A stretch of 64,000 nucleotides of DNA from positions 729,294 to 793,293 of the forward strand of contig CAWJGT010000034.1 of the NCBI GenBank assembly GCA_963842525.1. The letters are read 5' to 3'. The notes beneath the pieces are model-generated. The model did not search any database, had not been told where the DNA came from, and saw nothing but the letters and a program-made list of their open reading frames with translations. Position 1 is the stretch's first letter. Each line of letters begins with the position of its first letter. The stretch comes from an uncultured Holophagales bacterium (lineage in GTDB: Bacteria > Acidobacteriota > Thermoanaerobaculia > Multivoradales > UBA5704). The position numbers and the translations under genes were made by a program. Positions 1 to 63,378 of this stretch are shown here, piece after piece.

Positions 1-9622
<9,622 letters not shown>

Positions 9623-9651
<29 letters not shown>

Positions 9652-11755
9652 CAGCGGCGGTGAACGCGTGGATTTCGCCGAAGCAGGGGAAGAGCTCCAG
9701 GTGCGCGATGTCGCCGGGGTCGTCGCAGACCGACTCGAGCGCACGCTCGCCGGGAAACTCGGGGAGAGGCCAGCGCAGCGAGATCTCGTTCAACCCCTCG
9801 TTGACCGCTTCGCCGGGGACCACCATGTCCCATGTCTCCCATGCGCAGCCGATCTCGATCTTCACTTGGGGACGACCGTTCAAGGCGAGGACGAGGTCCC
9901 CCCGGGACGGCGCGTCTCCCGGCAGGCGGCAGGTGAGGCAAAGCCGCACCGGGCGCCCCGCTTCGCCGACAAATAGGAACCGCGAGTCGATCCAGTAGGC
10001 CTTGTAGAAATCGTTCCGCTTGCCGTGGACTGCCACTTCGCGCGGCAGCACCCACATTGCCTCCTGCGGCTGCAGAGCGGCCGAGCAGTAATAGAAATCG
10101 AGCAGATCGGTCGCACCGCGGGTGAGGCTGTGCTCCTCCCGGCGGAGCTGCCCCAGGCGTGCCCGTACATCGACGCCGATCTCATGCAGGGCCTCGGCAA
10201 TGGCATCGATCAGCAGCCGATCCAGTTGCTGGTAGTTGTGGCGCAGCAGGTAATACTGGAGCTGCCGCGATGCCAGCCCTGCGATCTCCTCCGCTGCCCG
10301 GCACATCAGCATCGGCGTCCGGCGCGTCTGGATCTCGATGAACCGGGTCATCACCTGGACGATCGCCGGCGAGGCCTGGGCCGCGACCGAGCAGTAGTGG
10401 CGGACCACATCCTGGGACTGCCACCAGTGTGCATTGTGGACGGCGGCCAGGAAGGCGGCGTGGGCTTCCACCTCGTTGCTCGGCGCGAGGCGCTCGTCGA
10501 TCAGGTCACGCCACGGAACCTCCACTCCCTGGAGCGCCCGCAGCACCGGGGATGCGGCTGCGGCCATGGCCACCCGGATGCCGGCTGCCGTCAGATGACA
10601 ATAGTCGAGGAACATCCGGCGGTCCGGGATGGCTTCGCCGAGGTGCTCGCGGAAGATCCGCGGCAGGTCGACCAGAGCGCTGCCCTGCTTGCGCGCCTGG
10701 CAGCGCAGAGCCTCCTGGGCGATCCCGTAGGCCCGGGGCGCGATATTCCGCGACGGATCCCAGATCACGGCGTCACGGGCCAGCTCCAGATGGCGTCGCG
10801 CCGCTTCGGGGTCGGCGGACCGCCGGCTGCACTCGGCCAGCATGTAGAGCCCGGCGACGCAGACTCCCTGATCGATCTCGACCATCCGGCGCGCCCGCTC
10901 CGCGGCCTGCTGCAGGTCTCCATGGTCGCAGGCCTGCCGCGCCGCCTGCCAGTGCTCCAGCCAGTCCCGGTTGGCGGTCCCGGGCAGATGAGGAGCGTTG
11001 GTGATCGGGTCCCGCCAGTCGCCGAGGTTGAACTCCGGGACGAGCCACACCAGAGGGATCTCCCTGGCGCGGTACAGCGAGGAGACCTCGCTCACCATGC
11101 TCCGCACCTTCGCCGCGAGCTGGTCCTCGGCAAAGCGCTTCAAGCCGGCGATTCCCTCCTCAAGCAGCAGCGAGCTGACCAAGGCCATCTCCGCGATCGA
11201 CGGCGCGGAGACGTTCCAGTTGTTGCCGGCGAAGATGACCACGGCATCAGGCTCCAGCAGCAGCGCCGATCTGGCGAGCTCTCCTACCTCGATCCCGAGG
11301 TCCGTCCGGGCGAGATCGATCACTTCGACCCTCTCGCCCATGTGCCGCTTGAGGATCGTCTGCAGCACCATCGCCGGGGTGAACAGCGGATCGTAGAGAT
11401 ATCCTCGTGCGACCGACTCGCCGACCAGCACGACCCGGCGCCTGACACCCTTCGGCTCGATCCGCCCGAGGTTTGCCCAGAGATTCCACTCGCTGGCTTT
11501 GTCCATGCGACGGACGAAGCCGGTCTCGCCGTTCCTGCTTTCGCGCGCCCAGATGCCTACGCAGTCCGAGCTCGCAGGCGCCGGCTTGCGCCAGACGGGT
11601 CCCCCGTCTTCGACCGGCCCGCCAGCAGGATGGAACGGCTCTCCCAGCATGCCCGTGAGCCGGAGCAGGCGAGCGAGCTGCGCACCTTCGGTGGAGGCGG
11701 CGGCCGCGGCGATCCGGTTGCAGAACACTTTGAGCGATTCTGGCGGGGCTCTCAT
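9623..11755 (-). CDS. NRPS-cluster protein with SGNH/GDSL-like motifs
   Basis: About 710 aa from ATG 11755; motifs VVLVGESVARG, IFAGNN, FLDYCHLT; overlaps the NRPS start. Confidence 0.7.
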
Positions 11756-11774: not shown

Positions 11775-13617
11775 CTACAGTAAAGTGTAGACGAGATGAT
11801 CGACGGTGCCACCGTCCCCGCGCTGACCGAGCACTTTCTGGGCCTGCAGATTCCACAGCTCCGGCAGGCCCGGGCGTTCCAGGACGAAGTCCTCGAGCAC
11901 CAGCACGTCGATCTGGCAGCGGACGAAGCACAGCAGCGCGTCCAGCGCCGTGCACACGATGGGCTCACCACGCATGTTGAACGATGTGTTGAGCAGGATC
12001 GGGCAGTTGGTACGCCGGTAGAACTCCGCGAGGAGCGCGGCGAAGCGCGGGCTGGTTTCGCAGCTCACCGTCTGCACCCGCGCCGAGCCGTCGACGTGCG
12101 TGACAGCCGGCAGTGCGATCGGCGAGGTGACCCTGCAGGTCTCGAGCATGAAAGGAGACGGATGATCGAGGTCGAAATGGTCGCGCGCCGCCGACTCCAA
12201 CACCGCCGGGGCGAAAGGGCGGAAGGCCTCACGCATCTTCACCAGGGCGTTGATGCGGTCCCGCATCTGCGGTTGCCGCGGATCTGCCAGGATCGACCGG
12301 GACCCCAGCGAGCGCGGCCCGAACTCCATCCGGCCGTGCGACCAGCCGATCACCTTGCCCTCAAGGAGCCGGTCGACGGTGTAGCGGAGGAGGGCGTCTT
12401 CCCGGCCTCGGAGATCGAGGAACTTGGCCGACGACGACCTCAGGATCCGGTGGATCTCTTCGGGGGAGCTCGCCGGCCCCAGGTAGACGTGCAGCAGCCG
12501 CCGCCTCGGAGGCGCCTCGCCGGTGAGCCGGACGTGAGCCGTCGCAGCAGCCCCTACCGAGCACCCCGCATCGCCCGCCGCGGGCTGCACGAACAGACGC
12601 TTGAACGGCCCCTCGGCCAGGCAACGTCTGTTGGCCACGACATTGAGAGCCACGCCGCCGGCCATGCAGAGGTTCTCGCTCGGGATCCTGGAGTGCAGAT
12701 AGCGGACCTTCTCGAGCAGGATCTCTTCGAGGACGACCTGGACGCTCCTGGCCACGTCCTTGTGGAACTGCAGAAGCTCGGAATCCGGTTTCCGCGGCGG
12801 CTGGCCCAGCAACGAGACCAGCTCCTCACTGTACATGGAGTCTCTCGGTCAGGAAGCCGAAGTACTTCATGTTCAGCCGGTACTGCCCTGCGGACGTCAC
12901 GGCGATGAGCTTGCGCATCTGGTCGACGTAGCGCGGAGCCCCATATGGGGCGAGGCCCATGACCTTGTACTCGCCCTCATTGACCTCGAATCCCAGATAG
13001 CCCGTGATGGCGCTGTAGAAGAAGCCGAGCGAGTCCGGGAAGTCGACCTGCTCGAAGCGGCTGATATGGGAGCCGCTCGCTGAGCCATAGGTCGTGGTGG
13101 GCCAGTCGCCAACTCCGTCGACGGTGAGAATCGCCGCTTCGTCGAAACCGGAGTAGAAGTAGCTGCTGGCCGCATGAGACAGGTGGTGGTCGACGATCTC
13201 GATCGGCCCCGCGTAGCCAAACACCTCGCGGATCACCTCCTGCGGTTGCTTCTGACTCAGGCGCGAAAGGATCGAGGCGCGCTTCTCCGGAGACAACTCC
13301 GGCGCCAGCGCCATCCAGACCTGGCGTCCCAGCTTCAGGACCGGATCCTCGTAATAGGCGACGCAGTCGATCTCGGAGAGCGTCAGCCCGCCCGCTTCGA
13401 GGCAGTATCTGAAAGCCTGCCGCGGGATCGACTTATCGTTCTTGACGCGGGAAAAGCGCTCCTCCTGGGCTGCGGCGACCAGGGAGCCCTCCTGCAGCAG
13501 ACAGCACGAGGAGTCGTGATAACCCCAAGAGATCCCGATGACGTTGAGATGGGGTCTGGCCGGCCGCTTCCCGAGCTTCACGCCCGCCTGAAGGGGCTCG
13601 TTCAGGGTCTGCGTCAT
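11775..13617 (-). CDS. Carbamoyltransferase, CmcH/NodU/TobZ family (1-bp frameshift near 12837)
   Basis: YHDSS, EERFSRVKND, HHLSHAAS, DGVGD, GEYKVMGLAPYG in the N-half; AGGVALN, MEFGPRSLGSRSILADP, VKMREAFRPFAP, LLNTSFN in the C-half. The halves join on removing one C (ERL-C-MYSEE). Confidence 0.92.
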
Positions 13618-13907
13618 GGCCAACTCCCGGAGGACGCGGGTGCACTCGGCCCCGCCTCTCCAGGGGCATTAACAGAGTCGATATGAGTCCCGCATTAACT
13701 AAGGTGCCTAGACCCCCAGAAGCGGGACAGGCAATGCCAACTTGTTGAATCGAGCAGTAACAGGAGGCCCAGAAATCGGCAGTGCCGGCTCCGCAGGTGG
13801 CCGGGTACAGGCAAGGAACGCCCGCCTCAGTGTAGACTCAGCAGGTTTTTCGCCCCGCGCCGCCGCTCCAGGACGGGCAGCGGCGGCTGTTCCGCTTGGA
13901 GGGCGGC

Positions 13908-36410: not shown

Positions 36411-37602
36411 CTACCCCTGCAACAGCGAACGCGCGATCACCAGCCGCTGCATCTCGCTGGTGCCTTCATAGATCGTGGTGACGCGCACGTCGCGGTAGAG
36501 GCGGGAGATCTCGTAGTCGGCATGGAAGCCGTTGCCGCCGTGGATCTGCAGGCTCTCGGCACAGGCGCGGTTGGCGGCTTCCGAGGCGTAGAGCTTGGCC
36601 TGCGCGGCGAAACGCCCGGCGTGCGGCGTGTGGTCGAGGGCGGCGGCTCCGTGCGTCAGAGTGCGCGCCGCGGCAAGCTCGGTCGCCATCTGGGCGATCT
36701 TGAACTGGATCGCCTGGTGCTGCGCGATGGGCACCCCGAACTGCACCCGGTCCCTGGCGTACTCGATGGCCAGCTCGAACGCCCGCCGGTGGATGCCGAC
36801 CGCCTGCGCCGCGATGCCCAGCCGTGAATGGCTCGAGTGTCGCGAAGGCGATCTTGAGCCCCTGGCCTTCCTGGCCCAGGAGGTTGCCCGCCGGCACGCG
36901 GCAGCCGTTGAAGTAGATGTGGGCCGTGCGCGAGGCGTTGAGCCCCATCTTCTCCTCGGGCTGCCCCACCGAGAAGCCGGGCGCATCGGACGACACCACG
37001 AAGGCCGAGAGGCCGCGCTTGCCGGCTTGCGGGTCCGTGCGGGCCACCACTACGTAATAGCGCGCATACCCGGCGTTCGTGATCCAGGCCTTCTCGCCGT
37101 CGAGCACCCAGAAGTCGCCGTCGCGCCGCGCGGTGGTGCGCAGGCTCGCGGCGTCGCTCCCGGAGCTGGGCTCGGTCAGGCCGAAGCCGCCGAGGGCCTC
37201 GCCCGTGGCCAGCGGCGGCAGGACCCGGCGCTTGAGGTCCTCGCTGCCGAACTGCACGATCGGCCAGGAGCAGACCGAGTTGGTGACGCTCATGGTCACC
37301 GACGTGGCCGGGCACACGCACGCGATCTCCTCCATCGCGAGCAGATAGGTCAGCGTGTCGAGGCCGGGGCCGCCGTACTCTTCAGGGATTATCATGCCGA
37401 GCAGGCCCATCTCCCCCATCTCGCGCAGGACCTCCTCGGGGAACCGGTGCTCGCGGTCGCGTTCCGCCACGCCGGGGCGGATGCGCTCCTCGGCGAAACG
37501 CCGCACCTCCTGGCGCATCAGCTCCTGGTCCTCGGTCAGCGAGAAGTCGATCCCGGAGGCGCTCGCGGCGCCTACGGCGCTTTCAGCAAGGATGGCGACC
37601 AT
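36411..37602 (-). CDS. Acyl-CoA dehydrogenase (frameshift near 36833)
   Basis: [37 protein letters not shown]. Confidence 0.9.
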
Positions 37603-37614
37603 GGCGGCTCCGCA

Positions 37615-54846: not shown

Positions 54847-56331
54847 TTGCAACCTGGACGCAATCGCCAGCTCGTCACCGCCTCCGTGATGCTGGGCATG
54901 TTCCTGGCGGCCATGGAGGCCACGGCGGTGGCCGCGGCCGTGCCCACCGCGGTCGGCGAGATGGGCGGCGTGGCGCGCTACAGTTGGGTTTTCTCGGCCT
55001 ACCTGCTGACCTCGACCACCACGATGCCGCTCTTCGGCAAGCTGGCGGACCTGTACGGCCGGCGGATGATCTACCACGTCTCCGTGGCGCTGTTCCTGCT
55101 CGGCTCGGCCCTCTCGGGGATGGCCGGCTCGCTCGAGCAGCTCATCCTTTTCCGCGCCCTCCAGGGGCTTGGCGCGGGCGGGGTGACCCCGATTGCCATC
55201 ACCATCACGGGAGACATCTACAGCCTGGAGGAGCGCGGGCGGGTCCAGGGGCTCTTCTCCGGCGTCTGGGCCCTCTCCAGCCTGGTTGGGCCCCTGCTGG
55301 GAGGCTGGATCACGGACGCCTTCTCCTGGCGTTGGGTGTTCTACATCAACCTCCCCTTCGGCATCGCTTCTGCACTCCTGCTCCAGCGCTATTTCCGCGA
55401 CAAGGAGACGCGGCGCGAGCACCGGCTGGACGTGCTGGGCACGATCAGCCTGACCGCCGCGGTGACCCTCCTTCTGCTGGCCCTTCTCGAAGGACCGGAC
55501 ATCTGGGGCTGGAGCGACGTCCGCACCCTGGGGCTCTTCGCCGGCTCAGCGGTCTCGCTCGCCTTTTTCCTCTGGCAGGAGCGGCGCGCGGCCGAGCCCA
55601 TCCTGCCGCTGGACCTCTTCAAAAACCGCCTGATCGCGGTGGCGAGCATGGGCAACACGCTCCTGGGCTCGCTGCTCTTCGCCATCACGGCGTTCGTGCC
55701 GATGTTCGCCCAGGGCGTGCTGGGCGGGACGGCCATGGACGCGGGCACGATCCTGACTCCCATCCTGGTCGCCTGGCCCATCTCCAGCATGCTGGCGGGA
55801 AAATACCTGCTGCGCGTGGGGTATCGCCGGTTTGCCCTGTTCGGAAGCCTGGTGGCTCTCGCCGGGACCGCGCAGCTTGCGATGGTGGACGCTTCGACGA
55901 CGCGGCTCTGGGTCCTGGTCTCGATGGGGCTCATCGGCTTCGGCCTGGGCTTCATCTCCATGCCCTACCTGCTCGGTCCGCAGAACGCCGTGCCCTGGCA
56001 GCAGCGGGGCGTGGCCACCAGCTCGGTGCAGTTCTTCCGTTCGATCGGCGGCGCGGTGGCGGTGGCGGCACTCGGTGCGTTCTTCAACGCCCGCTGGACG
56101 GCCCTGGCGCCGGGGATCGATCCAAACACCGCCCTCGATCCAGCGCTGCGCGCCAAGGCCGATCCCACGGCCCTGGCGCAGCTCGGCGCCGCCCTTCTCC
56201 ACGGCCTTCAGGGGGTCTACCTGGTGCTCGCCGTGATCGGCGCCGCCTGTGTGGTGGTGGCCTGGGTGTTCCCCAAAGGCACCGCCAGCTCGCACGCACA
56301 TCCAGGGCGCGACGCCATGGCCGAAGGATAA
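54847..56331 (+). CDS. MFS multidrug transporter (DHA2-like)
   Basis: GKLADLYGRR, FRALQGLGAG, WRWVFYINLP. Confidence 0.92.
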   Translation: MQPGRNRQLVTASVMLGMFLAAMEATAVAAAVPTAVGEMGGVARYSWVFSAYLLTSTTTMPLFGKLADLYGRRMIYHVSVALFLLGSALSGMAGSLEQLILFRALQGLGAGGVTPIAITITGDIYSLEERGRVQGLFSGVWALSSLVGPLLGGWITDAFSWRWVFYINLPFGIASALLLQRYFRDKETRREHRLDVLGTISLTAAVTLLLLALLEGPDIWGWSDVRTLGLFAGSAVSLAFFLWQERRAAEPILPLDLFKNRLIAVASMGNTLLGSLLFAITAFVPMFAQGVLGGTAMDAGTILTPILVAWPISSMLAGKYLLRVGYRRFALFGSLVALAGTAQLAMVDASTTRLWVLVSMGLIGFGLGFISMPYLLGPQNAVPWQQRGVATSSVQFFRSIGGAVAVAALGAFFNARWTALAPGIDPNTALDPALRAKADPTALAQLGAALLHGLQGVYLVLAVIGAACVVVAWVFPKGTASSHAHPGRDAMAEG

Positions 56332-56387
56332 CCTCATCCCCTGTCCCCATAGGCGCTAACTTTTTCGCCGGAGGGCCCCCCTGGACA

Positions 56388-56783
56388 CTCGCAGTGGTCC
56401 CGCGGGACCGACAGGATTCACCACGGGACCATGGACGTTCCCTGCGGTGGCTCGCAGTGGTCCCGCGGCACCGGCAGGATTCACCACGGGACCATGGACG
56501 CTCACTGCGGTGGCTCGCAGTGGTCCCGCGGGACCGGCAGGGTTCACCACAGGACCATGGACGCTCACTGCGGTGGCTCGCAGTGGTCCCGCGGCACCGG
56601 CAGGAGCCACCACGGGACCATGGACGCTCACTGCGGTGGCTCGCTGTGGTCCCGCGGCACCGGCAGGAGCCACCACGGGACCATGGACGCTCACTGCGGT
56701 GGCTCGCAGTGGTCCCGCGGGACCGGCAGGAGCCACCACGGGACCATAGACGCTCACTGCGGTGGCTCGCAGTGGTCCCGCGG
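56388..56783. repeat. 63-bp tandem repeat array, left part (6 full units plus the start of a 7th)
   Basis: Unit CTCGCAGTGGTCCCGCGGGACCGGCAGGAGCCACCACGGGACCATGGACGCTCACTGCGGTGG at 56388, 56451, 56514, 56577, 56640, 56703, 56766. Confidence 0.97.
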
Positions 56784-56961
56784 GTAGTGGTTCAGTTTGA
56801 CCGCGGCTTAAATATCGTTTGAAATCAACAGTTTACAGACGGTCGGAACCGGTGTAGGGTCCTCTCCGAAGGAGAGGGAATCGCCCACTCCTGTCCTCAA
56901 CAGCGGCCCGATGGAGTGCTAGCCACACCCCACCGGACCTAGCCGAGCACGGAGATACCCC

Positions 56962-57324
56962 ATGCCCGACCACGACCAGTGTAACCCGCCTGCCTCACCC
57001 ACGATCCCCCCGAAGACACGAGACGAAGTCGTCGCGCAACGTCTCATCCGATGTGCGGCCGGCAAGCTGCGCGAGGCTGCTGCCGTTCTCCGCGGCGTCC
57101 AGCGCTCTCTTCCCGAGCTGTACGACAGCGCCACCGCTGAAGCGATGGGCGAGCACCGCGCGCCGCAGTCTTTGACGTACAGCCTGATCGGAAGTGTTGA
57201 AGCCTGCCTGATGGACGATTTGGAGCCGGCAATCGAAGTGCTCGACGAGGCGGGCGATCTGACACCGGCCGAGCTGTATAACGAATGGCTGGAACGGAAG
57301 GCCGAAAGGGAGGAGCCGAAGTGA
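56962..57324 (+). CDS. Hypothetical helical protein (transposon cargo)
   Basis: 120 aa, GGAG RBS, stop overlaps the next GTG. Confidence 0.75.
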   Translation: MPDHDQCNPPASPTIPPKTRDEVVAQRLIRCAAGKLREAAAVLRGVQRSLPELYDSATAEAMGEHRAPQSLTYSLIGSVEACLMDDLEPAIEVLDEAGDLTPAELYNEWLERKAEREEPK

Positions 57325-57680
57325 AGATCCCGCTCCCGCTCCAGTGGCGTCGTCGTTTTCTGGCGGTCCTTCTCTGGCGCGTAGGTGCGCCTCGTACGCC
57401 GTTCGCTGAGGTCGCCCGGGTCCTGGTAGCCGGCCCCTTCTGTATCGCTCGCGGGTCCCGCTACGGCCTGGACTCCCGCGGGTGTTTCACCTTGTTCCAC
57501 ACCCCCTCGCAGGCCCCCATGTTCACCCTGCCGCGGCAACGGCTCTGTCGGGAAGCGGCGGCCGAATTGGCAACCTTGGACCTTGCCTGGGAGTCTGCCG
57601 ACCCTCTCGCCGTCACCGGTCCCGACTTCGGGCCGGCGGCCGAAGTCCATCGGAAGTGGCAAGCCCGGGAGCGCGCATGA
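57321..57680 (+). CDS. Hypothetical protein (transposon cargo)
   Basis: 119 aa, GTGA and ATGA coupling on both sides, GGAGG RBS. Confidence 0.7.
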   Translation: MKIPLPLQWRRRFLAVLLWRVGAPRTPFAEVARVLVAGPFCIARGSRYGLDSRGCFTLFHTPSQAPMFTLPRQRLCREAAAELATLDLAWESADPLAVTGPDFGPAAEVHRKWQARERA

Positions 57681-58136
57681 AGACGTCCTCTTTCACGGTC
57701 CACGCGACCCCGGAGCAGTCTCTCCGGTGGAAGCGGGCGGCAGAGGCTGAGGGTCACCGCTCGGCCGGTACGTGGCTCGCGATGGCAGCAGACGCCTATC
57801 TGAAGGTCAGGGCAAGAGCAGGGCTTCCCATCCCGCTCGCGTGGCACCGCGGCCGGTTCTCTGTACGCCTGGAAAGCGGCGAGACGGTCCCCGTCAAGGG
57901 GCACCTATCGCCGCCGTTCGGGTCGTTCGCCGGAACCGAAGAAGGGCCGGCTACCTACTTTGGGCGGCATCGGCACGCGCTCGTCTACTTGCCGGACTCC
58001 CGGATCATCGCCACTCTCCGGCGCTTCGCGCAGTGCAAGGCTCTAGCCTCCGAAATCGCTCCCGTGTTGATCCGTGGCGATCCCCTTCCGCCCGCCGCGG
58101 GGATCGTTCGAACGGCATCGCCGGGAGGCGATGTAG
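57677..58136 (+). CDS. RHH-like N-terminus plus unknown domain (probable extra T near 58107)
   Basis: SFTVHATPEQSLRWKRAAEAEG..SAGTWL; removing one T gives IVERHRREAM*. Confidence 0.65.
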
Positions 58137-58189
58137 CAGGACAAGGGCGGCGCCAGGACGGGCCGCCCTTGGTGTGTTACGATAGGAGC

Positions 58190-58441
58190 ATGCCAGACCG
58201 CACACGCAAGCCCAAGCGTCCCCGCGACATCAACCAGCTTGCCTACCAGATCGTCCAGGAAGCCACGGGGCAGGCCCCCAAGCAACCCGAGGAGCCGGAG
58301 GACCCTATCCGCGCTGCCGCTGCTGCGCTAGGCCGATTAGGTGGCCTGAAGGGCGGCAAGGCCCGGTCAGAGAAGATGACTCCAGAGGAACGCAGAGAGA
58401 GTGCCAGGAAGGCCGCGCAGGCCAGATGGAAGACACCCTAG
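58190..58441 (+). CDS. Small basic KGG-motif protein
   Basis: KRPRDINQLA...LGRLGGLKGGKARSEKMTPEERRESARKAAQARW; AGGAG RBS. Confidence 0.85.
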   Translation: MPDRTRKPKRPRDINQLAYQIVQEATGQAPKQPEEPEDPIRAAAAALGRLGGLKGGKARSEKMTPEERRESARKAAQARWKTP

Positions 58442-58471
58442 AGGACTCTAATCGAGCGCCGCTTAGGGTGC

Positions 58472-58500
58472 TTGACAGACACGGTGTTCACATATAAGAT
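58472..58500 (+). promoter_or_regulatory. Sigma70 promoter of the TAC operon
   Basis: TTGACA-N17-TAAGAT with an ACAC-G-GTGT inverted repeat in the spacer. Confidence 0.75.
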
Positions 58501-58544
58501 CACAACAGGCAGAGGGGGAAAAGTGTCCCCTCTAGGAGGCTAAG

Positions 58545-58963
58545 CTGCCCAAGGAACCCATAGAGGAAGGTGCGCGCGGGCGCGTCTATCAGTTCAGGCG
58601 TCCAAGCCGGGGACGAGGAGGAGCACTCGGCCGGTGTCCTGCTGCCGACTTCTTGAAGGGTTGTGACCACAAAATGAAAAAGAAGTTCCAAGGCGCTTTC
58701 CGTGCAATTGGCATCATGGGAGCAGTTGCCACCATGGGCAGCGGTTTAAGCCTTTGAAAGGTAAAGGCGATCCTCTCTGGGAGTTTAAGGAGCACGATCA
58801 TCGACTCTATTGTGTGCGCAATGTCAATGGAAGTTTCGTCGAGGTGATTTTATTGTCTGGATGGAGCAAGGATAAAGAAGGAAAATCGAAGGAAGAGTCC
58901 GTCCAGATAGAGAGTGCGATGCTCCTGTATCAAGAGTACCTAGAAGAAGAGAGGAGGACTTAG
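58545..58963 (+). CDS. RelE/HigB-like toxin (CTG start; 1-bp deletion near 58723)
   Basis: AGGAGG 5 nt before CTG; GRCPAADFL...[shift]...FKPLKG..LWEFK..RLYC...ILLSGWSK...IESAMLLYQEY. Confidence 0.72.
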
Positions 58964-58965
58964 CC

Positions 58966-59331
58966 ATGAATGCTTGGCTGATAAAGAATCGACAGCAGCA
59001 GGAAGTCGATGTGGAGATATTGGAAGAGGCGGCCCTTTTTATGGCTCAGGCCACAATCCAGAACGCACTCACCGGGAGCGGCATGACAAGGGCCGAATTC
59101 GCGCGTCGGCTCAACAGGCCGCCCTCGTTTGTCTCGCGCATGCTCAGCGGCGATCACAACTTGACGATCAAGACGATGGCGCGAGCACTGGCCGCGTGTG
59201 GTCAGGAGGTCAGATTCGGTACCGCGCCGCTGGTGTGGGTCTGGTCGCGATCCGAGAATGCGCGGGTTGCGGAACAGCCCATTGACGCCAAAACAATCGA
59301 GTCCGCCGCGAAGCAACTGCTCGCCGCTTGA
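58966..59331 (+). CDS. HigA-like XRE HTH antitoxin
   Basis: GMTRAEFARRLNRPPSFVSRMLSGDHNLTIKTMARAL, plus a C-terminal extension. Confidence 0.88.
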   Translation: MNAWLIKNRQQQEVDVEILEEAALFMAQATIQNALTGSGMTRAEFARRLNRPPSFVSRMLSGDHNLTIKTMARALAACGQEVRFGTAPLVWVWSRSENARVAEQPIDAKTIESAAKQLLAA

Positions 59332-59351
59332 GAGGAACGGAGGTCGTCCTT

Positions 59352-59861
59352 ATGCCTACCACCGAGAACGAGGTGGACATCAGCGCGCTTGCGCGGGTTG
59401 CTAGCAACGTTGACTTGTCGGAAATTCGGGTTTTTCGGCTTGAAGCAAGTCGCGGACCCATGCAGAAAGGACCGCTTGAGCCACAGATTCACTACGAAAG
59501 CTCTGGCCAGCGAGTCGCGCCGAATCAACTCAACGTGGTCTGCATCTACTACTTTCGTGTCCAGTGCGAGGGGGTGGAGGTGGTTAAAATCGACGTTGGG
59601 TACCTCATGATGTATGAGCTGCTGGGAGAGGTATCCGAGGACGACATCAAGCATTTCTCCGCCGCAAACGGTCTATACCACTCTTGGCCGTTCTTGAGGC
59701 AGCTCCTCTTCGATCTGACTTCGAAGATGGGGTTTCCTCCGTTAACGCTGCCCGTCTTCCAGGCGATTCCTCGCGGTAAGCCTCAAAAGGTGAAGGATGC
59801 CCCCGCTAAGAGTGAGGCCAAGAAGCCGCGCGCCGCGTTGCGCAAACGACAGACGGCGTAA
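59352..59861 (+). CDS. SecB-like chaperone
   Basis: Beta-sheet core then FSAANGLYHSWPFLRQLLFDLTSKMGFPPLTLP, the SecB-type C-terminal signature. Confidence 0.82.
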   Translation: MPTTENEVDISALARVASNVDLSEIRVFRLEASRGPMQKGPLEPQIHYESSGQRVAPNQLNVVCIYYFRVQCEGVEVVKIDVGYLMMYELLGEVSEDDIKHFSAANGLYHSWPFLRQLLFDLTSKMGFPPLTLPVFQAIPRGKPQKVKDAPAKSEAKKPRAALRKRQTA

Positions 59862-59975
59862 CAGCCCCCCTCCCCTCGGCCCCACAATGGACGCCGGCCG
59901 ATGGGAGATCACCCCGCCTTCCTTTCACCCCTTGAGGTGGTGTAGGGCTGTTGTGTATTCCTTCAAGGAAAGGTC

Positions 59976-60004
59976 TTGACTTTCCCAAACCGCTCTGGCA
60001 TAAT
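59976..60004 (+). promoter_or_regulatory. Transposase promoter (probably leaderless mRNA)
   Basis: TTGACT-N17-CATAAT ending 7 nt before ATG 60012. Confidence 0.7.
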
Positions 60005-60011
60005 AGTCAGT

Positions 60012-60861
60012 ATGGCAAACATCCTGAAGGCCGAGAAGCGAGCCGCCGTCATCTCTGCGCTGGTCGAGGGCAACAGCGTTAACGCAACTGTCCGGATGAC
60101 GGGCGTGGCGAAGAACACGATCCTCAAGCTCATCGTAGAGCTGGGGACGGCCTGCGCTGCCTACCAGGACGAGCACCTGCGGAACCTGCCCTGCAAGCGC
60201 GTCCAGGTGCGATGAGATCTGGGCTTTCTGCTACGCCAAGGCGAAGAACGTACCGGCCGAGAAGCGCGGCACCTTCGGTTTCGGCGACGTCTGGACCTTT
60301 ACCGCCATCGATGCGGACACGAAGCTCGTTCCCTCGTTCCTCTGCGGCCTCCGGGACACCGGAACGGCTACCGAGTTCTGCCAGGATCTGGCCTCCAGGA
60401 TGGCCGGCCGAGTCCAGCTTACGAGCGACGGGCACAAGATGTACCTCCAGGCCGTCGAGGACGCTTTCGGTGGTGACGTTGACTACGCCATGCTCCAGAA
60501 GATCTACGGAGGCGGCCCGACCGACAGCGAGCACCGGTACAGCCCGGCTACCTGCCTGGGATCGGAGAAGCGGACGATTCAGGGCACGCCCAACCCTCAC
60601 CACGTTTCGACGTCCTACGTCGAGCGCCAGAACCTCACGATGCGGATGAGCATGAGGCGTTTCACCAGATTGACGAATGCTTTCTCGAAGAAGGTAGAGA
60701 ACCTCATCGCCTCGGTAGCGCTTCACTACATGCACTACAACTTCTGCCGGCCGCACATGAGCTTGGGCGGGCGGACTCCGGCGATGGCAGCAGGGGTGGA
60801 GACGCGCAGATGGACCGTCCAGGACGTGATCGCCCTGCTCACGGAGCGCGGCGCCATTTAA
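60012..60861 (+). CDS. IS1-family DDE transposase (extra G near 60207)
   Basis: HTH LVEGNSVNATVRMTGVAKNTI; VQCDEIW, LTSDG, TSYVERQNLTMRMSMRRFTRLTNAFSKK. Confidence 0.9.
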
Positions 60862-60885
60862 GGCGAGGTCAAACTGAACCACTAC

Positions 60886-60958
60886 GTCCCGCGGGACCGG
60901 CAGGAGCCACCACGGGACCATAGACGCTCACTGCGGTGACTCGCAGTGGTCCCGCGGC
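60886..60958. repeat. 63-bp tandem repeat array, right part (rest of unit 7 plus partial unit 8)
   Basis: Resumes in register after the TSD. Confidence 0.95.
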
Positions 60959-60977
60959 GTGCAGCCTCCCTGCCCCC

Positions 60978-61004
60978 AGATCTTTCGCTACGCTCAGGAT
61001 GACA
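60978..61004. repeat. Solitary REP-like half element
   Basis: AGATCTTTCGCTACGCTCAGGATGACA resembles the widespread GTCATCCTGAGCG..GCGAAGGATCT repeat; no partner arm nearby. Confidence 0.45.
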
Positions 61005-61221
61005 CGACGGGTCTGGGGTCCCAGGACAGACCTTGTCAGCTCGCTAGAAGGCGCCGTTGAAGAGCCGAAATTGAGACACTTATTTTGTGACGAACCCGGT
61101 AGGAGATGGGAGAGGGGGAACGCATCTGAAGCTGTTTCGCGAGCTCACCACCACGGCTTCAACAACCCGATCCGTGGTATGAAAGCGCCGCATCCCGAAC
61201 CTGCCTGCCAAGGAGGAAGAC

Positions 61222-61821
61222 GTGCCGGAACGAAAGAGGTCCACCGCCGCCGAACGCGTCCGCTGCGCCTGGGTGAGCGACGATCCGCTCTACCTCGCCT
61301 ACCACGACGAGGAGTGGGGCGTGCCGGTTCACGACGACCGGAAGCTCTTCGAGATGCTGATCCTGGAAGGGGCCCAGGCCGGGCTCTCCTGGATCACCAT
61401 CCTGCGCCGGCGCGAGAGTTACCGCCGTGCTTTCGACCGCTTCGACGCGAAAAAGATCGCGGCTTATGGGCCGGAAAAGGTGGCGCGGCTGCTGGACGAT
61501 CCCGGCATCATCCGCAACCGCGCCAAGGTGGAGGCGGCGGTCGGCAACGCCCGCGCCTTCCTGGAGGTCCGCGAGCAGGCCGGGAGCTTCGACCGCTTCC
61601 TCTGGGACCTCGTCGGGGGCGAGCCCCTGCAGAACCGCTGGCAAAGCCTGAAGGAGGTCCCGCCCGAGACGCCGGCTTCGAAGGCGATGAGCAAAGAGCT
61701 CCGGCGCCGGGGCTTCCGCTTCGTCGGCCCGACCATCTGCTACGCTTTCATGCAGGCCGTCGGCATGGTGAACGACCACGTGACCGGCTGCTTCCGGCAC
61801 CGGGAGGTGCAGGGAGGCTGA
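61222..61821 (+). CDS. tag: DNA-3-methyladenine glycosylase I
   Basis: RCAW, YHDEEWG, EGAQAGLSW, IIRNRAK, GMVNDHVTGC. Confidence 0.96.
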   Translation: MPERKRSTAAERVRCAWVSDDPLYLAYHDEEWGVPVHDDRKLFEMLILEGAQAGLSWITILRRRESYRRAFDRFDAKKIAAYGPEKVARLLDDPGIIRNRAKVEAAVGNARAFLEVREQAGSFDRFLWDLVGGEPLQNRWQSLKEVPPETPASKAMSKELRRRGFRFVGPTICYAFMQAVGMVNDHVTGCFRHREVQGG

Positions 61822-62753: not shown

Positions 62754-63044
62754 GTGGGGCGTGACGACGTTCTGGAAATCCTGAAAGCGCACCGTGGAGA
62801 CCTCGACAGCTTCGGGGTCGAGACCCTACGTCTCTTCGGCTCGGTAGCACGAGGCGATGCCTCCGCTGAGAGCGACGTGGACCTCCTGGTCCGGTTTCGC
62901 AGCACTCCGTCGTTCTCCACCTTCATGAAGCTCCGGATCTTTCTCGAAGACGTCCTGGGCCGGAAAGTCGATCTCATCACCGAGTCCGGCCTCCGCGACC
63001 GTGTCCGGCCCTCCGTCGAGAGGGACGCCATCCGTGTCGCGTGA
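62754..63044 (+). CDS. Minimal nucleotidyltransferase (MNT) antitoxin
   Basis: LFGSVARGD...SDVDLLV. Confidence 0.92.
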   Translation: MGRDDVLEILKAHRGDLDSFGVETLRLFGSVARGDASAESDVDLLVRFRSTPSFSTFMKLRIFLEDVLGRKVDLITESGLRDRVRPSVERDAIRVA

Positions 63045-63378
63045 TCCCCTCCTCTTTCTACAGGATATCGAGAAAAGCTGTCTCAAGATCGTCAATCATA
63101 CGGCGGGCCGCGAGCGAGATGAGGCATTCGCCGACGAATTGGCCTTTGACGGCGTTCTTTTCAATCTCCACGTCATTGGCGAGGCCGTTAAGAACCTTCC
63201 TCAGGATCTGCGCCAGAGATATCCCGACGTTGCCTGGCGCGAAATCGCAGGCCTTCGTGATTTCGTAGCCCATGCCTACTTTGCTCTCGACCTCGAGATT
63301 CTCTGGGATGCGATCCAGCGAGATGTCCCGGCACTGTTGATCAGCATCCGAGAGATCCTCGCGAACGAGGGCGGATGA
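63034..63378 (+). CDS. HEPN/DUF86 ribonuclease toxin
   Basis: IGEAVK, W..IAGLRDFVAHAY (Rx4H). Confidence 0.92.
   Translation: MSRDPLLFLQDIEKSCLKIVNHTAGRERDEAFADELAFDGVLFNLHVIGEAVKNLPQDLRQRYPDVAWREIAGLRDFVAHAYFALDLEILWDAIQRDVPALLISIREILANEGG

Follow-up and report, generated by a model that had tools for sequence, protein, structure and literature searches.

The locus and the ends of the element

The stretch examined here, called the window throughout, is the whole 64-kb segment of contig CAWJGT010000034.1 from an uncultured Holophagales bacterium, and it contains an insert of 4102 bp bounded by two inverted repeats. From left to right, the insert carries three small open reading frames (ORFs), which we call A, B and C, a short gene named KGG, a toxin-antitoxin-chaperone (TAC) operon and a transposase gene. 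We are confident that the insert is a transporter insertion sequence (tIS), that is, an insertion sequence (IS) with passenger genes, and that it belongs to a divergent single-ORF branch of the IS1 family.

The left terminal inverted repeat (IRL, 56784..56813, + strand) starts with GTAGTGGTTCAGTTTGACC, and the right terminal inverted repeat (IRR, 60856..60885, − strand) holds the transposase stop codon. Both are 30 nt long and 93% complementary (28/30), exactly as an earlier note on this DNA had reported, and a 19-mer from the repeat core occurs exactly twice in the window, on opposite strands, compared with 0 occurrences expected from 100 shuffles. The element interrupts a host array of tandem 63-bp units: Tandem Repeats Finder reports a period of 63 bp, 6.3 copies and 95% matches at 56388–56784, and beyond the insert one more unit, a 99% identical copy, follows at 60886..60957. 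The left part of this array (56388..56783) is the insertion target, and its last nine bases (56775–56783) read GTCCCGCGG, which is found again at 60886–60894 as the right copy of the target duplication. The start-to-start spacings of the array are five times 63 and then 4174; since 4174 − 4102 − 9 = 63, deletion of the insert together with one copy of GTCCCGCGG restores the 63-bp phase exactly, and the claim that removal of the element regenerates the repeat unit is confirmed by this arithmetic. Because GTCCCGCGG is present in each 63-bp unit, it is the restoration of phase, and not the identity of the two flanks, that serves as evidence of insertion.

The length of the duplication is 8 or 9 bp. 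An identical 9-mer does stand on both sides of the element, but a perfect 9-bp duplication, as first described, is only one of two readings, as the 9-mer is part of every array unit and the G at 56783 can be assigned to the duplication or to the repeat. When it is given to the repeat, the left end reads GGTAGTG as in the related elements described below (family consensus GGTAGTGGGTCAGTTTGA), and an 8-bp duplication GTCCCGCG, with GGTAGTG as left end and a right end that is short of its last C, fits equally well. A G before GTAGTG and a C after CACTAC were found in 57/57 relatives with defined boundaries, and because this G...C pair flanks the core in all of them the 8-bp reading matches the rule of the family better. 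The array itself contains the palindrome GGTCCCGCGGGACC, its motif is found nowhere else within the window, the adjoining genes encode a transporter of the major facilitator superfamily and a 3-methyladenine glycosylase, and an Rfam scan of 56000–61300 returned no family.

Related elements in other genomes

A scan of species-representative genomes returned at least 602 related loci, of which the best 80 (57–70% identity) were retrieved with flanks of 10 kb. The same ends (GGTAGTG..TCAGTTTGA) together with an 8-bp duplication were present in 57/80 loci, where the duplication was perfect in 56 and had one mismatch in 1, and KGG lies beside the left end; the search for shared ends, transposase and KGG that had been proposed in the earlier note thus found what it had predicted. 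These 57 bounded elements measure 1336–4969 bp (median 3106), and the smallest of them, L010, is the only one reduced to IRL-KGG-transposase-IRR (1336 bp). Hosts of the related loci include Acidobacteriota, Chloroflexota, Actinomycetota, Pseudomonadota, Verrucomicrobiota, Planctomycetota and other phyla. Copies with 8-bp duplications were also found on plasmids of Mesorhizobium loti (3370 bp, with KGG annotated as ‘histone H1’) and Acidiphilium multivorum (2634 bp).

Three observations weigh against the tIS reading. The terminal C that follows CACTAC in all 57 bounded relatives is missing at the right end of the window element, the scan for the repeat core gave no second copy of the element in the window, and 23/80 loci yielded no bounded element, with no scorable repeat pair in 16 of them (several as contig ends near the transposase) and candidate repeats but no duplication in the other 7. 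With a single copy in view and a flanking 9-mer shared by all array units, one could suppose that a 1.3-kb IS had landed beside unrelated genes and that the left repeat is a stray from another copy. We regard such a chance composite as very improbable: the 63-bp phase is restored exactly, the same architecture recurs with perfect 8-bp duplications at 56 other loci in many phyla, and the arrangement of ORF C before KGG is found again in L001, L006 and L008.

Two loci of this sample may be mentioned for their own sake. L035 (NZ_LT546237.1) is a bounded element (8220–11107) with an 8-bp duplication in a cultured mycobacterium, Mycobacterium interjectum; it carries a P63C protein, and its KGG gene has an inserted segment of ∼50 residues. 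At L082, the Acidiphilium multivorum plasmid NZ_CP041717.1, a RES-domain toxin and an Xre-type antitoxin form a pair at 5880–6718, which is not cargo because it lies directly outside the right repeat.

The transposase and its assignment to IS1

The transposase gene (60012..60861, + strand) encodes an N-terminal helix-turn-helix (HTH) and a DDE domain; in intact relatives it is one ORF of 279–299 amino acids. Its stop codon TAA (60859–60861) lies within IRR, so the overlap of gene and repeat stands as it was first noted, but the reading frame of the gene is interrupted. An additional base at 60210 stands immediately before the first catalytic aspartate (in the motif DEIW), frame 0 stops at 60213–60215, and in a three-frame translation the catalytic part carries on in frame +1, while relatives read through KRVQVDEIWAF in a single frame. 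A programmed frameshift was considered and is unlikely, since thousands of relatives have the gene as a single ORF, the window copy carries an additional base and a slippery motif is missing.

At least 8000 proteins are related to the catalytic part at E ≤ 1e-3, and D2, D74 and E139 of this part are invariant in 29 sequences. The closest relatives are P0001 (95%) and P0002 (92%). Among the best 120, most are single ORFs of 279–299 amino acids and have a precomputed match to Pfam DDE_Tnp_IS1 (PF03400), and many are named ‘IS1 family transposase’ by JGI and NCBI. For the intact P0002, the best NCBIfam family is transpos_IS1 (NF033558, E 3.5e-13), ahead of IS481 (2.6e-6) and IS6 (7.8e-6), so that IS1 leads the other families by seven orders of magnitude in E-value, with a match that takes in the HTH and the beginning of the DDE domain. 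As the NF033558 match begins only at model position 41, the protein lacks the N-terminal zinc-finger part.

IS1 elements have ends of the form GGnnnTG and duplicate 8–9 bp of their target. The terminal repeats fit this form, with GGTAGTG at the left end in the window and at both ends in 57/57 bounded relatives, and the duplications agree with it as well. The clade shares with the IS1 family the HTH-DDE transposase with IS1 as best profile, the ends and the duplication length. It differs from classical IS1, in which InsA contributes a zinc finger and an HTH and a −1 frameshift joins two ORFs: the relatives found here are single-ORF and lack both the zinc finger and the InsA/InsB′ −1 frameshift, and a tblastn search of 72,556 plasmids retrieved 18 records and no classical IS1 copy. 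It differs further from the IS1 family in its conserved extra gene KGG and in the extra DNA that 56/57 bounded elements carry. Judged by its sequence, the transposase most probably represents a divergent branch of IS1 with a single ORF, distinct from classical IS1.

What counts against this assignment is the profile scores. The Pfam cut-off for PF03400 (24.1 bits) is reached only marginally by the catalytic part from the window (25.3 bits) and is missed by P0002 (23.9 bits), and with transpos_IS1 P0002 reaches 49.9 bits where the cut-off asks for 100. Taken with the matches to the IS481 and IS6 models, the absence of both the zinc finger and the −1 frameshift, and the lack of classical IS1 among the 18 plasmid records, these scores would also suit a DDE family of its own whose likeness to IS1, IS481 and IS6 is confined to the catalytic core. 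We consider this improbable in view of the lead of IS1 over the other families across the HTH and DDE parts, the GGnnnTG ends with their 8–9 bp duplication, and the naming of these proteins as IS1 family by JGI and NCBI. Within IS1, the ISMhu11 subgroup of ISfinder comprises elements of about 0.9–4.6 kb with two ORFs. We assume that the present clade may be this subgroup, which would fit a core of KGG and transposase with passengers.

KGG and the conserved core

KGG (58190..58441, + strand) encodes a small basic helical protein of 83 amino acids. A homologue was found by tblastn in 53/80 loci, and 7 others were recognised when the first ORF behind IRL was read, which brings the gene to 50/57 bounded elements; in 19 loci its start lies 63–66 bp after IRL. 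Seven ORFs do precede the transposase in the window, as had been counted, but KGG is a core gene and not a passenger, therefore the passengers are six and not seven.

The AlphaFold2 (AF2) model of KGG has three helices (predicted local distance difference test, pLDDT, 81.5; predicted template modelling score, pTM, 0.39). The protein has no Pfam or NCBIfam family, a profile search of the PDB gave only a chance match to the basic region of a basic helix-loop-helix protein (E 0.89), Foldseek gave nothing below E 4, and its Atlas clusters are unnamed or called ‘histone H1’. We propose that KGG may be a DNA-binding accessory or regulator of transposition. Its C-terminal motif, GGxKGGxARA..L.....R.EIA.KAA.ARW, is also the N-terminus of P63C-domain cargo proteins in three related loci (L033:9580–9663, L019:3106–3189 and, on the − strand, L021:6796–6879), and may be a portable nucleic-acid-binding module.

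Besides the two genes and the ends, the core includes a short control region. A sigma-70-like promoter, TTGACT-17-CATAAT (59976..60004, + strand), has a −10 box whose end is 7 nt away from the transposase ATG, and this ATG lacks a Shine-Dalgarno sequence. Approximately 35 bp ahead of the ATG are conserved, including the CATAAT box 7 nt upstream (59980–60011 in the window), and most of the 57 elements keep ..GCTCAAGCATAATGGTCAGTATG upstream of the transposase, which suggests that the transposase mRNA would be nearly leaderless. Many elements also have a perfect palindrome, ATGCTTGA-N4-TCAAGCAT, before the transposase, which is a candidate operator; the left half-site is not conserved in the window. 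A second sigma-70-like site, TTGACA-17-TAAGAT (58472..58500, + strand), stands ahead of the TAC operon, so that the promoter scan found 2 such sites in the element compared with 0.5 expected.

Cargo positions and cargo exchange

The related elements carry their cargo in three slots, IRL-KGG, KGG-transposase and transposase-IRR. Extra DNA (>400 bp) between KGG (or IRL) and the transposase was present in 56/57 bounded elements, extra DNA after the transposase (>300 bp) in 28/57, and extra DNA before KGG in about ten elements, including L006 and L008, the closest relatives of the window element. The rule that IS1 elements carry no passengers, on which the earlier note had relied, thus fails for this branch. 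In the window element and its relatives the passengers lie inside the repeats and one duplication flanks the whole unit, as in a tIS. The idea of a swappable slot between KGG and the transposase holds in so far as the DNA at this place differs among close relatives; its restriction to one slot does not hold.

The elements are mosaics of core and cargo. In an all-against-all blastn comparison, pairs share IRL with KGG and the transposase (63–83% nucleotide identity) and do not share the cargo. When four recurrent cargo classes were placed on a transposase tree of the 57 elements (from a quick search, with the stops in six rows set to X and one row on a long branch), 10 changes were needed compared with a mean of 10.7 for shuffled classes, and 198/500 shuffles were as low. 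Moreover, well-supported sisters carry different cargo, namely L019/L026 (support 97), L012/L029/L045 (99) and L006/L008 (100).

To describe the cargo we took the longest non-overlapping ORFs of ≥80 amino acids from the 56 cargo-bearing elements, which gave 149 ORFs and excluded 28 ORFs of 55–79 amino acids. Pfam matched 50/149 at E ≤ 1e-5. These include HTH-peptidase M78, P63C, Gp49 with HTH, Panacea antitoxins, PIN_10 with DUF433, Fic and NYN proteins; N6/N4 methyltransferases with Mrr or HNH nucleases, GmrSD and AAA_21 proteins, and SDH proteases; and a dCTP-deaminase-like protein, a GNAT acetyltransferase and Bro-N. PADLOC at E ≤ 1e-10 matched 27/149 ORFs in 20/56 cargo-bearing elements: the Rosmer pair, RmrT with RmrA, in 4 elements and RmrA by itself in 1, PD-Lambda-2_B in 7, type II/III methyltransferases in 4, of which one also had a type II nuclease, and HEC-06/GmrSD, HEC-04, SoFic, PDC-S13, PDC-S42 and NYN in 1 element each.

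The shared ends, the variable cargo and these matches to known or candidate defence proteins support the proposal that the element belongs to a family of vehicles for defence genes. More specifically, the family may be a phylum-spanning, IS1-derived ‘defence shuttle’ with a two-gene core of ∼1.3 kb and three cargo positions, in which compact toxin-antitoxin and anti-phage systems (Rosmer, PD-Lambda-2, restriction-modification, GmrSD, TAC) are exchanged faster than the transposase diverges; we put this forward tentatively, with our doubt slightly the greater. Several points count against the reading of the element and its family as a whole: 99/149 cargo ORFs are without a Pfam match, the PADLOC counts are single-protein matches and not complete called systems and stand without a genome background, and the TAC genes of the window had no relative by tblastn in the 80 loci.

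In L026 (7012–8073), L068 (8524–9698) and L052 (8366–9606, − strand), a Gp49 (HigB-like) protein and an HTH protein recur together and are accompanied by a third gene, a DUF3467 protein in L026 and L068 and an unmatched ORF of 109 amino acids in L052, a layout that resembles a TAC. DUF3467 was tried as a SecB-like chaperone, but the SecB-like alignment, compared by hhalign with four such proteins, gave a probability of 0.2%, and because of this value the triplets are not established as TACs. In L066 (11074–11892), a bounded element with a perfect 8-bp duplication, an orotidine 5′-phosphate decarboxylase gene lies downstream of the transposase, which is cargo of a housekeeping type and unlike the other cargo.

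The probable toxin-antitoxin-chaperone module

The KGG-transposase slot of the window element holds three genes in the order toxin, antitoxin, chaperone. The toxin gene (58674..58963, + strand) is of HigB-like, RelE/HigB fold, and intact relatives have 96 amino acids. In the window a base that is present in the intact relative P0121 is missing between 58720 and 58721, which breaks the frame; P0121 reads through and is 100% identical over the last 73 toxin residues. For the AF2 model of P0121 (pLDDT 85.3), the top Foldseek matches were the Streptococcus pneumoniae HigBA toxin 6af4 (E 1e-3, template modelling (TM) score 0.57), 6af3 and Mycobacterium tuberculosis HigB1 (7awk), followed by YoeB and RelE. 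The toxin is placed upstream of the antitoxin, and its HigB/RelE type is seen by fold only.

The second gene (58966..59331, + strand) encodes a HigA-like HTH antitoxin of 121 amino acids (Pfam HTH_31/HTH_3) with 1104 relatives, a PADLOC match to PDC-M64B (E 2.8e-12) and a match to 3eus_A in the PDB (E 1e-4). The HTH is followed by a tail of ∼40 residues, in which a P..W.W motif is conserved and whose last residues are ...LLAA; many relatives end in AA. The third gene (59352..59861, + strand), starting 20 nt after the antitoxin stop codon, encodes a SecB-like chaperone of 169 amino acids, whose best solved relative is 5mtw_C, ‘SecB-like chaperone Rv1957’ (E 1.5e-6). It has 19 relatives, of which 4 carry PF02556, and the JGI name is ‘preprotein translocase subunit SecB’. 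In 6 cases, toxin and chaperone relatives come from assemblies with equal longest-contig size, and in one of these the NCBI locus tags are two genes apart, which suggests that toxin, antitoxin and chaperone form a conserved triplet. The composition of the module is foreign: the TAC genes have a guanine plus cytosine (GC) content of 0.46–0.59 (0.46–0.48 for the toxin), compared with 0.68–0.70 for the host and 0.60–0.65 for the transposase, in agreement with the low-GC cargo described before.

In published TACs, a SecB-like chaperone holds the antitoxin's aggregation-prone aromatic C-terminal extension, called ‘ChAD’ (PMC5105189), a ClpX-dependent degron was reported for HigA1 (PMC8165232), and a phage protein can compete for the chaperone and release the toxin, and defence against phage has been demonstrated for TACs (bioRxiv 10.1101/2024.02.24.581848). 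The window module has the order of M. tuberculosis HigB1-HigA1-SecB(TA), Escherichia coli HigBAC and CmdTAC, with toxin, HTH antitoxin and SecB-like chaperone in succession. Among solved structures its chaperone is nearest to Rv1957 of M. tuberculosis, and the fold of its toxin matches HigB toxins including HigB1 of the same species. The antitoxin's C-terminal extension, with its conserved aromatic residues, fits the published description of ChAD (PMC5105189, bioRxiv 10.1101/2024.02.24.581848), and we regard it as a candidate ChAD-like tail by this analogy, as ChAD regions share no sequence similarity with one another. The toxin fold, the chaperone sequence and the antitoxin tail together support the reading of the operon as a TAC that was first made from the letters alone.

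Several results weaken this reading. The toxin family comprises 48 relatives, all unnamed and with no Pfam domain; it has no sequence-level link to HigB, and the fold match is moderate. A link by sequence to HigB/Gp49 was tried with hhalign against three Gp49 cargo proteins and rejected at a probability of 2.7%, a profile search against PDB sequences gave only a chance match (E 0.95), and the C-terminal part of the toxin, scanned from the window copy, had no PADLOC match. For the chaperone, Pfam SecB is matched with E 1.7e-4, which is below the cut-off, and PADLOC PD-T4-9_C only with E 1.1e-3. The window module thus differs from described TACs in a toxin family that Pfam and PADLOC (C-terminal part only) do not recognise, in its interrupted toxin frame and in its site, as those systems are described on prophages, plasmids or islands (bioRxiv 10.1101/2024.02.24.581848) and the present one lies inside an IS.

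The upstream operon

The IRL-KGG slot is occupied by a compact operon of three genes on the + strand. ORF A (56962..57324, 120 amino acids) is preceded by a GGAG motif and has a GC content of 0.71/0.47/0.74 by codon position. ORF B (57321..57680, 119 amino acids from a GTG start) has 4-nt overlaps with both A and C. Neither protein matched any library (Pfam, NCBIfam, PADLOC and PHROG), and ORF A had no tblastn match in the 80 loci; the C-terminal half of ORF B is 54% identical to the translated start of L001, where this sequence lies just upstream of the ORF C homologue. ORF C (57677..58136, about 153 amino acids) is a conserved passenger, with homologues in L001 (69%), L006 (66%), L008 (42%) and L002 that always lie just upstream of KGG. 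Compared with these it has one extra base at 58109 and, as assembled, its frame runs without a stop into KGG: the homologues end in ...VERHVRES[F/V] before the stop codon, and the corresponding ...ERHRREAM and stop of the window are found only in the next frame. ORF C has no PDB relative, and its leads among Atlas clusters are ribbon-helix-helix and NikA-like (scores 0.86–0.88, below 0.9), from which a ribbon-helix-helix N-terminus is possible as a lead.

Frame breaks and the state of the window copy

Three genes of the element are thus each broken by a single base, the transposase at 60210, the toxin at 58720/58721 and ORF C at 58109, and these breaks count against a working element in the window; this copy may be neither mobile nor toxic. 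The insertion had also been called recent, a claim that the broken frames leave in doubt. Two host genes of the window show the same kind of break. A carbamoyltransferase gene (11778–13668, − strand) is split at ∼12.84 kb, with positions 2–246 of the Pfam N-terminal domain in one ORF and positions 273–345 together with the C-terminal domain in the overlapping next ORF. An acyl-CoA dehydrogenase gene (36469–37614, − strand) switches frame in its middle, at ∼36.8 kb, so that its C-terminal domain is in another frame. These two genes suggest either assembly indel errors or a decaying genome, and because they are split in the same way as the genes of the element, decay of the element and assembly indel error are not separable.

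If the frame breaks and the missing terminal base were real mutations, the copy would be a dead relic, fixed in place, with its toxin disarmed and decaying. In favour of this are the one-base breaks in transposase, toxin and ORF C together with the aberrant right terminus, and the density of breaks, which is higher in the element (3 in 4.1 kb) than in the host (2 confirmed in ∼60 kb, from no systematic count); toxin loss is, moreover, a common fate of chromosomal toxin-antitoxin (TA) modules. But the copy otherwise looks young, with a perfect duplication, repeats matching at 28/30 positions and a toxin end of 73 residues that is 100% identical to an intact relative, and the like splitting of two ordinary metabolic genes of the host points to indel errors of the assembly. 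We therefore hold a dead relic to be possible but rather doubtful.

Proposed working and comparison with known elements

From the comparison of the related elements we propose the following course of events. The core consists of two repeats of ∼30 bp starting with GGTAGTG, KGG at ∼64 bp inside the left end and the HTH-DDE transposase, whose conserved promoter lies so close to the start codon that its transcript would have almost no leader. As judged from its family, the transposase would bind the repeats and insert the whole unit by a cut staggered by 8 bp (by 8 or 9 bp in the window element), and KGG may help or regulate insertion by binding DNA. The core tolerates foreign DNA at three places. 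In the relatives these seem to be filled with small TA and anti-phage modules, and in the window they hold the low-GC TAC operon in the KGG-transposase slot and the three-gene operon A, B, C in the IRL-KGG slot. Cargo would be exchanged probably by recombination between conserved core segments of different elements. The TAC toxin, with its HigB fold, would be of the ribonuclease type, and the chaperone would have to hold the aromatic tail of the antitoxin for the antitoxin to survive. By analogy with published TACs, the module may make loss of the element costly, or abort phage infection, or do both, and in each case retention of the element would be favoured.

These two effects lead to different views of the cargo. 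It may be that the cargo acts as addiction modules that serve the element, by punishing its loss or excision, and not the host, in which case ‘defence vehicle’ puts the emphasis wrongly. Much of the cargo is indeed of TA type (Gp49-HTH, PIN_10-DUF433, Panacea antitoxins, Fic and the window TAC) and this cargo sits between the two core genes; TA pairs are known to be integrated in the transposition modules of Tn3-family elements (PMC7157771), and TA systems have been discussed as selfish stabilisers of mobile elements (PMC12548467). On the other side, phage defence, and not addiction, is the role described for the restriction-modification, GmrSD/HEC-06, Rosmer and PD-Lambda-2 homologues, and TACs defend against phage (bioRxiv 10.1101/2024.02.24.581848), although the two roles are not mutually exclusive. 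The addiction view is a serious possibility, which we hold to be somewhat less likely than not.

The kinds of part found here are already known: IS elements with passengers, the IS1 family and cargo of TA type. With the tIS described in PMC9330008 the window element shares a single IS-type transposase, terminal repeats, passengers inside them and a target duplication outside; unlike it, none found in the searched literature has TAC or anti-phage cargo, or three cargo positions and a conserved small accessory gene. Tn7-like carriers of defence genes (PMC8649781) are similar in their variable, defence-rich cargo and in boundaries that were computed from ends and duplications, but they use several transposition proteins and span tens of kb, compared with one transposase, 1.3–5 kb and one or two modules in the present family. 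The Tn3-family elements likewise have TA genes within the transposition module, but their transposase belongs to another family with another mechanism and their TA genes are two-gene pairs, compared with a triplet of the chaperone-dependent type in the window. In the literature searched we met no IS1-type element with a conserved extra core gene, none with three cargo positions and none with TAC or anti-phage cargo.

If the family behaves as the comparison suggests, an element of 1.3 kb with a single transposase suffices to move small immune or addiction modules between chromosomes and plasmids. Should the defence shuttle be real, few autonomous vehicles of bacterial immune genes would be smaller than these elements, KGG would represent a new class of accessory or regulatory protein in transposition, and the cargo ORFs that are without annotation (99/149 by Pfam) would offer a rich store of defence or TA systems not yet described. 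The GGTAGTG..TCAGTTTGA ends and the 8-bp duplication delimit the cargo exactly, therefore the unannotated genes inside are good candidates for such systems. A TAC inside an IS offers a possible route for the horizontal spread that the TAC papers inferred, and KGG, which is conserved, uncharacterised and tied to transposition, is amenable to simple genetics. Present annotation labels these elements gene by gene, as ‘IS1 family transposase’, ‘histone H1’ or hypothetical protein, and not as mobile units.

Other genes of the window

Genes for non-ribosomal peptide synthetases, whose domains are of the condensation, AMP-binding and PP-binding types, occupy 6–9789 (− strand) at the left of the window. 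The second of these ORFs has a truncated PP-binding match at its end and overlaps the first by 340 nt, which is possibly another frame break. Outside the element, 1.9 kb downstream of it, an NTP_transf_2 nucleotidyltransferase and a HepT-like ribonuclease are encoded by overlapping ORFs at 62754–63378 (+ strand), and this pair looks like a TA system of the MNT-HEPN type.

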